From Candidatus Giovannonibacteria bacterium (GTDB lineage: Bacteria; Patescibacteriota; Minisyncoccia; JACPKW01; UBA11713), in assembly GCA_016176285.1 (NCBI GenBank), contig JACOXM010000001.1:5812-69811 (forward strand): a stretch of 64,000 nt of DNA. Reading direction: 5' to 3'. The notes beneath the pieces are model-generated. The model did no database searches and was not told where the DNA came from. It was given only the letters and a program-made list of their open reading frames with translations. This document shows positions 8,113 to 13,540 of the stretch, piece after piece. A program made the position numbers and the translations under genes. Position 1 is the stretch's first letter. Each line of letters begins with the position of its first letter.

Positions 8113-10059
8113 TTGAATAATCTTGAAATTTCCGAAGAGGCGCTTGATTCCTTAAAACACGAACTAAAAAAACTCGAAGACGCGCACCCGGAATTAATAA
8201 CTCCGGATTCGCCGACCCAGCGCGTGGCAGGCGAGCCCTTGAAAGGATTTAAAAAAGTAACGCATAAAGTAAGGATGCTTTCTCTGGAAGATGTTTTTTC
8301 AGAGGAGGAATTTTTAGAATGGGTTGAAAGAGTAAAAAAAGTATTGGGCGCGAAGGATGCGCTTGAGCTTTTTGCAGAGCAAAAATTCGACGGGCTTGCC
8401 ATAAGCCTGATTTATAAAAACGGATTTTTGGAAAGAGCCGCGACGCGCGGAAACGGGCAGGTTGGAGAAGACGTGACTTCCAATGTCAGGACAATTGAAG
8501 CCGTGCCTTTGTCACTTGAACTTCATGACGGAAAAATCAGCGCAGAGACAAAAAAAGATATTCTGGCTTTGATCGAAAGAGGCGAAGTTGAAGTAAGGGG
8601 CGAGGTTATAATAAATAAAAAAAGTTTTGAAAAAATAAATAAGCTGCAGGAAAAAAGGGGAGAGCAGGTTTACGCGAATCCCCGTAATTTAGCCGCGGGC
8701 TCATTGCGACAGCTTGACCCCAAGATAACTGCCGAGCGCAAACTGGATTTTCATGCCTGGGATATTGTGAGTGATGTTACAAAATATCATTCCGAAGAGC
8801 ACGATATTCTGCGCATGCTCGGATTTAAGACAGACCCGGAAGCGAAAATTTTAAAGAATCCTGATGATCTTTTTCGGCTTAAAAATAAAATTCAAAATGA
8901 ACGCGAAAAGCTTGGCTACGAAATTGACGGATTAGTTGTGCAGGCCAATGACAATGAAATTTTTCGGAAATTGGGAATAGTGGGAAAGGCTCCTCGCGGA
9001 TCGATTGCGTATAAGTATTCGCCGAAAGAGGCAACAACAAAAGTAAACGATATACAGGTTCAAGTCGGGCGAACGGGAGTACTCACCCCCATTGCTTTTT
9101 TAGAGCCGGTAGAAGTAGGGGGCGTTACCATTTCGCGGGCAACCTTGCATAACCAGGATGAAATAAAAAGGCTTGGTTTAAAAATAGGAGATACGGTGAT
9201 AGTGGGGCGCGCAGGGGACGTGATTCCGGATATAATAAAAGTCTTGCCGGAACTTCGGACAGGAAGAGAAAAAGAATTTCATATGCCGGAGAAATGCCCC
9301 GTTTGCGGGAAGCAAGTTAAAAAAGTAAACAATGTAGGAATTTATTGTTTAAATCCGAAATGCCCTGCTCGAAACCGGGAAGGTCTGTATCATTTTGTAG
9401 GACGGTCCGCTTTTGATATAGCGGGTCTTGGGCCCAAAATAATCGACGTGCTTCTTGATCAAAATTTAATTCAGGACGCGGCTGATATTTTTGACTTGAA
9501 AGAAGGAGATATTTCGGTTCTTGAGCGTTTCGGGGAGAAATCTGCTGAAAATATAATTCGTTCCATAAAATCAAAAAACAAAATTACTTTGCCGAGGTTT
9601 ATTGTCTCACTCGGGATTTTGCACGTCGGAGACGAAACCGCGCAGGATTTGGCAGATCATTTCGGATCAATCGAAAAAATTTTAAAAGCATCAGCTGAAG
9701 ATTTAAATAGTATAGAAAATATCGGGGCAGTTGTGGCTGGGAGCGTTTATAGTTGGTTTCGCGATCCATACCATAAAAATTTTTTGGATAAACTTTTAAA
9801 AAGGGTTACGATTGAAAAATACCATGTTCCGGCGGGGAAACTTAAAGGATTGGCGTTTGTTTTAACGGGCGGTCTTGAGTCTTTAACACGGGATGACGCC
9901 AAAGCGCGGATCAGAAAACTCGGCGGGAAAATATCAGAAAGCGTTACCAAGGAAACGGATTATGTGGTTGCGGGCGCTGATCCCGGCTCAAAAGCCGATA
10001 AAGCAAAAAAATTGGGAGTCAAAATAATAGACGAGAAAGAATTTTTGAAAATGATATGA
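8113..10059 (+). CDS. ligA: NAD-dependent DNA ligase LigA (true start probably upstream at ~8032-8062 on a non-ATG codon)
   Basis: Adenylation motif, OB fold, Zn-finger (CPVCG...C), HhH and C-terminal BRCT. The in-frame sequence back to 8029 encodes conserved LigA N-terminal residues ([22 protein letters not shown]) with no ATG/GTG/TTG. Confidence 0.85.
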
Positions 10060-11846: not shown

Positions 11847-13540
11847 GCGAAACACGAGTGTGTCAAAATTGTAATAGTGATTTCCAGATCGAACCCGAGG
11901 ATTTTAAATTTTACGAAAAAATGCAGGTGCCTGCTCCGACATTTTGCCCGGAATGCAGATTTCAAAGGCGTCTCATGTTCAGAAACGAAAGAGCGCTCTA
12001 TAAAGACAAATGCGATCTTTGCGGAAAAGATATGATTTCGATTTTTTCGCCGGATAAACCTTTTAAAGTTTATTGTTTGCCATGCTGGTGGTCGGATAAT
12101 TGGGATCCTTTGGAGTCGGGGTTGGATTATGATCCTGACCGCAATTTTTTTGAGCAAATGAAGGAAGTCCAGTTGAGAACGCCGTTCATGTGCTTGATTA
12201 ACGGTTATACTACTTTAATAAACAGCGATTATGTGAATCATGCCGGTTCTTTAAAAAATTCTTATCTCGTGTATAACGGCGATTATGGAGAAAATATTTA
12301 TTATCTTGAGATATTCACCAATATTAAAGATTCAATGGATTCGACAATGCTCGGAGAGTCAGAATTATGCTATGGAGTTATTAACGGCACAAAACTGCAT
12401 AAAGTATTTTTTTCTGAAGACGTTCGAGAATGCCACAATGTTTATTTTTCCAAGAACATGGTGGGCTGCTCCGATTGTTTCGGTTGCATTAATTTAAAAA
12501 ATAAAAAATATTTTATTTTCAATAAGCCTTTTAGCAAAGAAGAATATGAGAAAAAACTTAAGGAATTAGATATTAATTCATATAAATCTTTTTTGGATTT
12601 AAGAAAAAAAACGATCGAATTTTGGAAAACAATACCTCATAAATTTATTCATGAACGATATAATGAAAATGTTTCAGGAGACTATGTGTATGAATCAAAA
12701 AATGCCCATAATATATACCAAGGCCGTTATATAGAGGATGGAAAATTTGCTCAATTAATTACGCTTCCGCCAGTAAAAGACGTCTATGATTATACGGAAT
12801 GGGGCATGGGAGCTTCGCGTATAATCGATTCGATTACAGCTGGTCTTCAGGCGGATAATATAAAATTTACATTTGGTGCATATGATAATGTTATGAATAT
12901 TGAATATTGCATGTATGTGATTTCTTCTTCTAATATGTTGGGATGTATAAATGTCAGAAAAAAACAGTATTGTATTTTAAATAAGCAATATATAAAAGAA
13001 GAATACGAAAAATTGCGAGCTAAGATAATTGAAGATTTAGAAAAAAATCCTTATATAGACTCAAAGAGCAGAATTTTTAAATATGGAGAGTTTTTGCCGT
13101 ACGATTTGGCCCCTTACGATTACAACGAATCATCTGCGAATTGGTATTTCCCGTTTTCGAAGGAAAAAATTACAGAGAATAGCTGGCGCTGGCATGAAGA
13201 AATTGCTTCTGTATACAAGCCGACAATGAAACTAGAGGATATGCCGGACAGCATTCATGATGTAAAAGACGACATTATAAATGAAATTTTTGAATGCGTA
13301 GATTGCGGAAAAGCTTGGCGCGTAATAAAGCCAGAAATAGATTTATTGAGAAGATTTGACCTTCCGCTTCCCAGAAAATGTCCCAATTGCAGATATAAAG
13401 AAAGACTTTCGCGAATTAATCCGCCAAAGTTATGGGATCGGACTTGCGCTAAATGCGGAAAAGCCATAAAAACAAGTTATGCTCCCGAGCGTCCGGAAAT
13501 TATTTATTGCTCGGGATGTTATCAAGAAGAATTTATTTAA
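11843..13540 (+). CDS. Cysteine-rich hypothetical protein, paralog 2
   Basis: ATG at 11843 overlaps the upstream stop (ATGA). Its N-terminus [10 protein letters not shown]... aligns with paralog 1, so 11843 is the likely start rather than the longer 11822 ORF. Contains an extra intact CxxC...CxxC ribbon. Confidence 0.5.
   Translation: MSETRVCQNCNSDFQIEPEDFKFYEKMQVPAPTFCPECRFQRRLMFRNERALYKDKCDLCGKDMISIFSPDKPFKVYCLPCWWSDNWDPLESGLDYDPDRNFFEQMKEVQLRTPFMCLINGYTTLINSDYVNHAGSLKNSYLVYNGDYGENIYYLEIFTNIKDSMDSTMLGESELCYGVINGTKLHKVFFSEDVRECHNVYFSKNMVGCSDCFGCINLKNKKYFIFNKPFSKEEYEKKLKELDINSYKSFLDLRKKTIEFWKTIPHKFIHERYNENVSGDYVYESKNAHNIYQGRYIEDGKFAQLITLPPVKDVYDYTEWGMGASRIIDSITAGLQADNIKFTFGAYDNVMNIEYCMYVISSSNMLGCINVRKKQYCILNKQYIKEEYEKLRAKIIEDLEKNPYIDSKSRIFKYGEFLPYDLAPYDYNESSANWYFPFSKEKITENSWRWHEEIASVYKPTMKLEDMPDSIHDVKDDIINEIFECVDCGKAWRVIKPEIDLLRRFDLPLPRKCPNCRYKERLSRINPPKLWDRTCAKCGKAIKTSYAPERPEIIYCSGCYQEEFI

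Follow-up and report, generated by a model that had tools for sequence, protein, structure and literature searches.

A Paceibacteria-specific family of zinc-finger-capped, predicted beta-solenoid proteins and its occurrence beside genes for coupling-protein-like ATPases

Two adjacent genes in a 64,000-nucleotide (nt) stretch of a Candidatus Giovannonibacteria contig (JACOXM010000001.1, positions 5,812 to 69,811; hereafter the window) encode cysteine-rich paralogs, P1 and P2, that belong to a family of soluble cytoplasmic proteins of ~590 amino acids (aa) specific to Paceibacteria (Parcubacteria). Its fingers and parallel beta-solenoid are familiar fold types; the family as a whole, its core domains and their arrangement correspond to nothing characterised. 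Each protein would form a pseudo-symmetric module, having a tandem zinc-finger pair at either terminus and, between these, two solenoids and an acidic domain (M). Family genes usually occur in variable same-strand arrays of two to seven diverged paralogs, and in a portion of the sampled loci they adjoin genes for soluble ATPases that resemble type IV coupling proteins (T4CPs). We tentatively propose, as a possibility that falls short of being probable, that P1 and P2 are non-enzymatic, multi-zinc binding platforms or adaptors (or cargo) working with such orphan T4CP-like ATPases. We found no description of the family, of its motifs, or of a link between dnaK and T4CP genes in the Candidate Phyla Radiation (CPR) in the open-access literature.

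Architecture and predicted fold of P1 and P2

P1 and P2 are real genes under strong purifying selection. Full-length alignment of the proteins gives 42% identity (E 2e-166), and their genes share a strand and a 4-nt ATGA overlap of stop and start, in agreement with the initial annotation of this DNA as a pair of adjacent paralogs. The ligA stop overlaps the P1 start in the same manner (ATGA, sequence 10056-10059), as do gatC and gatA, and gatC probably starts 2 nt past the P2 stop; with these overlaps and this gap, ligA-P1-P2-gatC-gatA make up one tight five-gene string, as part of which the pair would be expressed. An upstream ATG at 11822 offers an alternative P2 start, and the alignment with P1 together with 565-aa orthologue calls on three related contigs (L005-L007) favours 11843. 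P1 is identical to MBI2023794.1, a "hypothetical protein" from a Candidatus Giovannonibacteria metagenome-assembled genome (MAG). The same gene order with the same 4-nt overlap is found on contigs from four different samples (L005-L008), and on the recurrence of the pair in these independent assemblies we reject an assembly chimera, including one joined at 11843, where the annotation had envisaged a possible coverage break. Between P1 and its L005 orthologue, aa identity is 90% and the ratio of non-synonymous to synonymous substitution rates (dN/dS) ~0.06; the values for P2 are 76% and ~0.13. In the same genome pair gatA is 76% identical, so that P1 is more conserved than gatA.

Pfam domains of the flanking genes confirm that the pair lies between ligA and gatCA, and a housekeeping rather than mobile setting remains the right description for this window. 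By tblastn, 50,697 phage records and 72,556 plasmid records were without a match, and IMG/VR contained one fragment. G+C content falls to 0.35-0.37 over window positions 10001-14000, which cover both genes, from 0.42-0.46 in much of the remaining window, while G+C at third codon positions drops mildly (0.33-0.34 in P1 and P2, 0.39-0.41 in ligA and gatA). Given the lack of phage and plasmid matches and the mildness of this drop at third codon positions, an origin from a mobile element was rejected. Neither a transmembrane or hydrophobic segment nor a signal peptide was predicted in P1 or P2.

Both the core and the termini of these proteins are internally duplicated (coordinates and residues in Table 1). 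When profiles built from a 40-sequence alignment were compared with hhalign, the two central repeats, R1 and R2, matched each other over 135 columns at 22% identity (99.65%, E 3.6e-25), and the N-terminal finger matched the C-terminal module (98.9%, E 2e-17). The initial annotation had recognized both relationships, the second by the motif LPLPR.CPNCR, and had noted correctly that a stretch beside the N-terminal ribbon, beginning F(T/Q), is shared by the two proteins, that a second CxxC...CxxC ribbon is exclusive to P2 (C57, C60, C78 and C81, lost in P1), and that both proteins end C.GCY. Three of its details require adjustment. The repeat units span ~145 aa (roughly 104-250 and 255-400), not ~250; the closing motif given for both, CFGC(V/I)NL, describes R1, where R2 carries a degenerate form, (L)FGC(V/I)(G/N)...YCILNKQY(S/I)KE(E/D)Y; and the N-terminal ribbon, C7xxC10...C35PEC38R, has a spacer of 24 residues instead of 28.

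The four terminal modules are designated ZnA and ZnB at the N-terminus and ZnA' and ZnB' at the C-terminus. All four Cys of ZnA are retained in 146 of 155 family sequences, the Cys4 pattern of ZnA' in 142 and that of ZnB' in 153, whereas the CCCC set of ZnB is found in P2 and in 37% of the family, P1 having S/S/E/I-type residues in its place. The motif residues of the elaborated ZnB' of P1 (CxC...HxH...C-x17-CxxC) are at least 96% conserved in the family. Mean pairwise identity is highest in ZnA (59%), and the two termini, at 59% and 54%, exceed the solenoids, at 37%. In the M domain G417 is invariant and P421, N430 and W452 are at least 91% conserved. Net charge is -9 for the M domain of P1 (aa 405-484; family mean -5.9) and +8 for its ZnA' (family mean +5.5). 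From their sequences the fingers presumably bind zinc, which for the ribbons is a reasonable expectation given that small CxxC-x17-CxxC proteins of Methanosarcina mazei do so by inductively coupled plasma mass spectrometry (PMC12704099).

The core is predicted to consist of two narrow beta-solenoids, on the strength of a structural model and of sequence periodicity. An initial AlphaFold2 run with a shallow alignment gave a predicted local distance difference test (pLDDT) of 78.6 and was poor in the repeat regions (pLDDT 50-75); with a deeper alignment of 129 sequences, 34-65% identical to P1, pLDDT rose to 93.0 with a predicted template modelling (pTM) score of 0.92. Autocorrelation of the R1 profile is strictly periodic at 3 residues and highest at 12 and 24 (z ~9.4), and R2 has peaks at 13 and 26. 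A ladder of Tyr, Asp and Cys follows this 12/13-residue spacing. In R1 of P1 it comprises Y141, Y154, D166, Y177 and C212, and the repeat ends with C209xxC212xxC215 and Y.IFN.PYSKEEY; conserved positions in R2 are D316, Y328, Y355, F367-G-C369, C379, N382 and Y385. The R1 CxxCxxC triad is intact in 123 of the 155 family sequences, and C369 and C379 of R2 are both present in 136. In the model ZnA has a beta-hairpin (strands 3-6 and 13-16) followed by a helix, residues 36-44, whose start coincides with C35/C38, as in a treble clef, and a helix at 523-531 beginning at C522/C525 makes ZnA' likewise treble-clef-like. The beta-solenoid capped by zinc ribbons that the annotation had suggested looking for thus agrees with a confident model and with the periodicity. 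P1 contains 26 Cys and P2 25. Family members typically have ~11 in R1 and ~8 in R2, where P1 (6/6) and P2 (5/3) have fewer, with Ser, Ile or Leu instead; because they are so freely replaced, the ladder Cys look like interior packing residues rather than ligands. The ~12-residue coils, and the regularly spaced Cys of most family members, recall the antifreeze protein of Tenebrio molitor, a secreted and disulfide-bonded narrow solenoid with 12-residue coils, to which there is no sequence relation and from which the family differs in being cytoplasmic and in having ladder Cys replaceable by Ser, Ile and Leu.

Searches of known families detect the fingers alone. Pfam, NCBIfam, PHROGs and PADLOC yielded nothing for P1 and P2 beyond terminal zinc fingers, most of them sub-threshold, and only zinc fingers were matched by Pfam in 40 relatives. 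Motifs common to the four terminal modules of P1 and P2 relate them to zf_Tbcl and zf_Tbcl_2 (PF13451, PF23477; TIGR04272), and the CxxC-x24-CxxC module of the family, F.I...D..FY.K...P.P..CP.CR with a basic helix, is zf_Tbcl-like. Residues 532-562 of P2, in ZnB', reach the gathering score of PF23477 (27.9 against 27 bits) and score 21.9 bits with TIGR04272, below its cut-off of 36. P1 has no match to PF23477 or TIGR04272 above the E = 1 level, and membership of zf_Tbcl_2 is thereby limited to the C-terminal ribbon of P2; exact CxxC-x17-CxxC spacing occurs in both P2 ribbons, P1 retaining just C569-x17-C587xxC590. Residues 5-43 of P1 score 14.4 bits with PF13451, short of the gathering score of 24, and ten of 40 relatives match that model at E <= 0.01 (best 1.6e-4), a resemblance that is real but sub-threshold. 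The zf_Tbcl families are single small domains of unknown function, whereas here four such modules cap a 400-aa solenoid and M core that no model covers. In P1, moreover, the fingers are sub-threshold, all Cys of ZnB are lost, and ZnB' is enlarged by a CxC...HxH insertion.

Searches of the PDB by sequence and profile with the single protein, the family profile, the N-terminal module, R1 and the M domain gave nothing credible, and Foldseek found no match at E <= 1e-3 in the PDB or BFVD, the fold matches in BFVD being small "putative zinc-ribbon domain" proteins. PADLOC returned no match and PHROGs only matches at E > 0.03, so no known anti-phage defence or phage family is indicated. An MCM helicase was rejected as a candidate (PF17207 at 21.5 against 24.8 bits, over the ribbon segment alone; NF040949 at 16.7 against 940; PDB Mcm6 at E 0.063), as was the radical SAM model TIGR04471 (mobile pair protein A; 15.6 against 355 bits), the motif here being CxxCxxC and not CxxxCxxC. 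Weak matches to Med15, DUF169, BsaP, MCM_OB and TIGR04471 were judged to be noise from zinc-ribbon and cysteine motifs. With domain libraries seeing only the fingers, and with neither sequence nor fold searches of the PDB giving a significant match, the view that these proteins can be assigned to no characterised family holds.

Distribution, paralog arrays and gene neighbourhoods

The family is large, conserved and, as had been supposed from the window, uncharacterised. E-values of 1e-3 or better were obtained for 7,985 of 8,000 word-sharing candidates, and an exhaustive search of cluster representatives (50% identity) identified at least 3,757 at E <= 1e-3, with 1,454 at E <= 1e-30. Every named match is "hypothetical" or "uncharacterized" and, except for one partial match, derives from Parcubacteria-type lineages (Giovannoni-, Jorgensen-, Yanofsky-, Staskawicz-, Nomura-, Lipton-, Niyogi- and Sungii-bacteria, Paceibacterota and Minisyncoccia). 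The exception is a 56%-identical partial member at the end of a contig labelled Candidatus Aenigmatarchaeota (JAWACN010000004.1). This DPANN-assigned contig also encodes a PG_binding_1 protein, ThiF/JAB, AMMECR1 and a PHP protein; the archaeal member may be mis-binned or may reflect genuine transfer.

Arrays were surveyed within 6 kb on one strand in 88 fetched loci, comprising 80 species-representative loci and 8 other contigs. A single family gene was present at 34 loci, two at 29, three at 10, four at 7, five at 2, six at 5 and seven at 1; one MAG contains, on two contigs, at least ~10 full-length copies and ~12 open reading frames (ORFs) matching the family profile. The paralogs are ancient, since 97% of array members have their nearest relative at a locus of another genome and not within their own array. 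Array composition differs between genomes: the pair in the window represents subfamilies B and F, a "BF" combination that recurs only in the close relative L005 and is reversed in L043. A fixed P1-P2 heterodimer is therefore unsupported, since the subfamilies paired in arrays differ from genome to genome. At four loci a family gene is split into two adjacent ORFs, for example of 380 and 189 aa (L087:5995-7755; L049:4570-6330; L016:2737-3707; L047:9433-11145); these could be frameshifts, decaying copies or sequencing errors.

Paceibacteria genomes are roughly 1 Mb in size. Despite such small genomes, many Paceibacteria carry this 1.7-kb gene in multiple diverged copies, numbering from 2 to at least 12, and because copies are kept in these genomes and P1 is more conserved than the essential gatA, the family must do something important that annotation does not see. 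It represents a large piece of the "dark matter" of the CPR, for which neither Pfam nor NCBIfam has a model and no structure, solved or significantly similar, is available. At the least it merits a structure and a domain definition that takes in both the M domain and the solenoid repeat.

The commonest cluster of neighbouring genes in the species-level loci encodes mainly soluble VirD4/TraG/TrwB-like ATPases (PF10412, PF01935, PF12696, PF02534), which have an intact Walker A motif and no membrane segment. A T4CP-like gene lies within 6 kb at 30 of the 80 loci; at 18 it is on the same strand and no more than 200 nt from a family gene, and at 14 family genes stand between two T4CP-like genes. 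The longer of the two ATPases (640-770 aa), here T4CPzf, has a zf_Tbcl_2 finger (E 1e-11 to 1e-13) and a long disordered tail. One T4CPzf protein matches the P2 ORF by phmmer (E 5.9e-6), T4CP-like zinc-finger proteins are the sole weak matches of the ZnB' profile outside the family, and beyond this weak finger match no domain is shared between the family and its neighbours.

To avoid sampling bias an independent search was started from T4CPzf, whose best 120 matches are 68-84% identical, and five long contigs (L091-L095) were examined. All five have the order dnaK - T4CPzf - [0-3 family genes] - T4CP2 (~490 aa) - dnaJ, within a longer operon arranged as grpE - [0-2 family genes] - PaaX_M-like gene - dnaK - T4CPzf - [0-3 family genes] - T4CP2 - dnaJ. 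It lies downstream of a ribosomal-protein/rpoA block (rpoA-L17-L13-S9 where the locus reaches). Family genes occur between dnaK and dnaJ in three of the five contigs and between grpE and dnaK also in three, and membership of the family was confirmed for unannotated genes of the operon (E 1e-117 to 1e-254). At a second type of locus the order is opposite, with family genes between T4CP2 and T4CPzf, and the neighbours are a Sigma70_r4/HARE-HTH protein, a ~460-aa protein with an N-terminal membrane segment (labelled DUF8128), a ~170-aa membrane protein, trmD and comEC. We found no description in the open-access literature of a Paceibacteria Hsp70 operon interrupted by two VirD4/TraG-like ATPase genes. 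In a published survey, CPR genomes encode about two T4CP homologues each; of 5,713 such homologues 148 are near virB4 and 5,565 are not, type IV secretion systems (T4SSs) occur widely in the CPR, including Paceibacterota, and the authors could not rule out that t4cp genes had been taken over for other functions (10.1101/2025.01.22.634366). The position of family genes beside ATPase genes in the Hsp70 operon thus provides a testable handle on the role of the ~5,700 CPR T4CP homologues located away from virB4.

Table 1. Coordinates and residue features of the gene pair, its modules and flanking genes in the window, with examples of locus types elsewhere
Feature	Position	Strand	Residues	Description and basis
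ligA, NAD-dependent DNA ligase	8113-10059	+		Pfam DNA_ligase_aden, OB, HHH and BRCT domains
P1 (ORF1)	10056-11846	+	596 aa	ORF call
P1 ZnA	10056-10211	+	1-52	CxxC-x24-CxxC treble clef (predicted) C7, C10, C35, C38, then basic helix R39, R42, R43, R47
P1 ZnB remnant	10212-10307	+	53-84	ribbon-shaped, all four Cys gone; strands still predicted
P1 linker			85-118	acidic linker and helix
P1 solenoid R1	10410-10745	+	119-230	short strands every ~12 residues, predicted from AlphaFold2 and periodicity
P1 hairpin			231-264	helical hairpin between R1 and R2
P1 solenoid R2	10848-11213	+	265-386	duplicate of R1, ~13-residue coils (predicted)
P1 helix and acidic M domain	11214-11507	+	387-484	motif PY.D..G..Y.YGEFFP...G..W
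P1 ZnA'	11508-11675	+	485-540	second treble clef (predicted) C487/C493/C497...C522xxC525, strongly basic
P1 ZnB'	11676-11843	+	541-596	expanded zf_Tbcl_2-type ribbon C544xC546...H562xH564...C569-x17-C587xxC590
P2 (ORF2)	11843-13540	+	565 aa	ORF call, from ATG at 11843
P2 ZnA and ZnB	11843-12094	+		C7, C10, C35, C38; intact CxxC-x17-CxxC C57, C60, C78, C81
P2 R1, helical hairpin and R2	12197-12994	+	R1 119-230; R2 265-384	C209xxC212xxC215 in R1; C368, C377 in R2; from alignment with P1
P2 ZnA' and ZnB'	13289-13537	+		C485xxC488-x24-C513xxC516; C535xxC538-x17-C556xxC559
gatC and gatA	13542-15283	+		Pfam GatC; ORFs; Amidase annotation on the syntenic L005 genes
Hsp70-operon examples	L094:6013-12506; L091:1376-16550			the two ATPase genes in the grpE-dnaK-dnaJ operon
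Second locus type	L040:3-11841; also L002, L036, L057			family genes between T4CP2 and T4CPzf

Possible roles of the family

In the platform or adaptor role that we tentatively propose, the partners would be VirD4/TraG-like hexameric ATPases, T4CPzf and T4CP2, encoded in the grpE-dnaK-dnaJ operon of Paceibacteria. The conserved terminal fingers and the identical finger type of T4CPzf might dock on a common ligand or partner, either nucleic acid or the motor itself; specificity would differ from paralog to paralog through the solenoid surfaces, which are more variable; and the pair in the window would work in trans, its ATPases being encoded in another part of the genome. Consistent with such a role, the termini are better conserved than the solenoids, the paralogs are ancient and array composition is variable. 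Known partners of T4CPs include the DotL-DotM-DotN-IcmSW adaptors of Legionella, of which DotN binds zinc, and the effectors encoded by the virD4-bepA-G arrays of Bartonella. The present family is like these in its tandem paralogs beside T4CP-family ATPase genes, its predicted zinc binding (as in DotN) and its basic, conserved C-terminal module. It differs from them in that the ATPases are soluble, paired and zinc-finger-bearing and are encoded in a dnaK operon away from virB4, and in being highly conserved and core-like instead of specific to a lineage; searches by sequence and fold linked it to no known adaptor or effector.

Several observations weigh against this proposal. The functional tie to the ATPases comes from gene neighbourhood alone. 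No T4CP-like gene lies within 6 kb at 50 of the 80 loci, and since these loci are the best matches to a P1-like profile, their frequencies may not hold family-wide; the cluster counted as T4CP-like also includes the ~460-aa membrane protein that bears the precomputed Pfam label DUF8128 and lacks a Walker A motif. Genes of the CPR are crowded together on one strand, which makes close spacing a poorer indicator of operons than in other bacteria. At two of the five dnaK loci the ATPase pair is present and family genes are absent, and no T4CP-like, DnaK, DnaJ or GrpE gene is present in the 64-kb window. The near-invariant residues D85, D97, Q105, D166, D316, N430 and E507, with the CxxCxxC triad, could equally form an active site or a redox or Fe-S centre. 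AlphaFold2, finally, can over-predict beta-solenoids when a sequence consists of (perfect) repeats (PMC11795689), although the repeats here are imperfect (22% identity) and deeply aligned.

An extension of the adaptor proposal, which we regard as rather unlikely, joins the family, the two VirD4-like ATPases and DnaK/DnaJ/GrpE in an unrecognised Paceibacteria-specific machine. A motor of the FtsK/HerA type from conjugation would have been repurposed for remodelling of cytoplasmic protein or nucleoprotein, or for loading cargo for transfer to a host, with the paralogs as interchangeable substrate adaptors. If true, this would explain why thousands of orphan T4CP genes of the CPR are kept away from virB4.

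Three further explanations are each improbable in our estimation. The proteins might, first, be stand-alone beta-helix enzymes, for example acyl- or acetyltransferase-like and modifying small molecules or polymers, in which the fingers are structural caps and the paralogs differ in substrate. The nearest solved folds to R1 and R2 are indeed parallel short-strand solenoids, and the top Foldseek matches in the PDB are all left-handed beta-helix enzymes (acyltransferases and gamma-carbonic anhydrases: GlmU, LpxA, LpxD, PglD, CysE); the near-invariant Asp, Asn, Gln and Glu with the CxxCxxC triad would suit an active site, and multi-paralog enzyme families are common. These fold matches are, however, not significant (best E 3e-3, probability <= 0.18, template modelling score <= 0.2), the coil period is 12-13 residues and not 18, and a single chain contains two copies of the solenoid, with zinc fingers on either side. 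The hexapeptide signature (Pfam Hexapep) was absent from P1, P2 and 38 relatives, and no other enzyme model in Pfam or NCBIfam was matched. D166/D316 and N227/N382, moreover, occupy equivalent positions in R1 and R2, and for this reason are probably structural.

Similar doubt attaches to a zinc/thiol stress protein of the Hsp70 regulon, acting either as a holdase or co-chaperone with a redox switch, like Hsp33 or the zinc centre of DnaJ, or as a zinc buffer. Like Hsp33 and DnaJ, these are Cys-rich and predicted zinc-rich cytoplasmic proteins, whose genes in several genomes accompany grpE, dnaK and dnaJ: family genes directly follow grpE and lie between dnaK and dnaJ in three of the five sampled operons, Cys are abundant in P1 and P2 and still more so in R1 and R2 of the family at large, and the CxC...CxxC of a P1-type ZnB' superficially resembles the Hsp33 zinc motif. 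Yet Pfam and NCBIfam searches gave no match to HSP33 or DnaJ_CXXCXGXG at E <= 1, the folds are different, and the majority of family loci are outside the Hsp70 operon, DnaK, DnaJ or GrpE being within 6 kb at just 13 of the 80. Replacement of the ladder Cys by Ser, Ile and Leu in P1 and P2 is as expected of packing residues, not of redox sensors.

No better, in our judgement, is the prospect of an autonomous nucleic-acid-binding factor that acts on imported or damaged DNA, or on RNA, through its four basic treble-clef and ribbon fingers, the ATPase neighbourhood being incidental. Basic helices follow both treble clefs (CR..RR...RN) and ZnA' is positively charged throughout the family; the pair lies next to ligA with type IV pilin-like genes upstream, the second locus type holds a HARE-HTH/Sigma70_r4 protein and comEC, and the N-terminal finger is weakly like the MCM zinc ribbon. 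Against this, the proteins are acidic overall (pI 5.9; net charge -10 and -7), strongly so in M, linker and R1; no recognised DNA- or RNA-binding domain scores above threshold, and zinc ribbons mediate protein contacts just as often.

Export through a T4SS is less probable still. As in the Bartonella Bep arrays, the proteins would be effectors recognised by VirD4-like coupling proteins through the conserved, positively charged C-terminal module; the adjacency of tandem paralog arrays to T4CP-like genes, and the wide occurrence of T4SSs and of T4CP homologues away from virB4 in the CPR, would accommodate this. The family is nonetheless far better conserved than effectors usually are (45-65% identity across orders; dN/dS 0.06 for P1), the ATPases have no membrane anchors and are encoded in the dnaK operon, where the virB4 of Paceibacterota is typically among dnaA/dnaN-type genes, and zinc-stabilised solenoids would presumably be poor substrates for unfolding. 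The poor repeats of the first, shallow-alignment model might have signalled an artefact, whether a chimeric assembly, wrongly called ORFs or a solenoid of AlphaFold2's own making, which we consider exceedingly improbable and, as to the genes, largely refuted by four independent assemblies with the gene pair, thousands of full-length homologues and purifying selection on both genes; for the solenoid, the repeats are imperfect and their periodicity is visible in the alignment without any model.

Other features of the window

Four consecutive type IV pilin- or pseudopilin-like genes (5822-8013, + strand) lie directly upstream of ligA; they carry the N-terminal methylation motif GFT(L/I/V)xE (Pfam N_methyl), and PilX_N is matched weakly. 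Beyond gatA, on the - strand, a 79-aa ORF beginning MCYNCGCKMPDNPMGAGHAGHE (15280-15519) is Cys/His-rich, has no Pfam match and could be a small metal-binding protein or spurious. It is followed by a 144-aa ORF (15672-16106, - strand) that corresponds to the C-terminal part of deoxyhypusine synthase (profile positions 174-287 of 288, E 6e-23) and, to judge by its sequence, is a truncated gene or pseudogene remnant. A small stand-alone GIY-YIG protein is encoded at 16385-16624 (- strand), 3 kb downstream of the pair, and similar small GIY-YIG genes (79-88 aa) adjoin family genes in four fetched loci (e.g. L045:5723-5995). Over window positions 44001-58000 G+C content drops to 0.37-0.40, compared with 0.42-0.46 in much of the rest.

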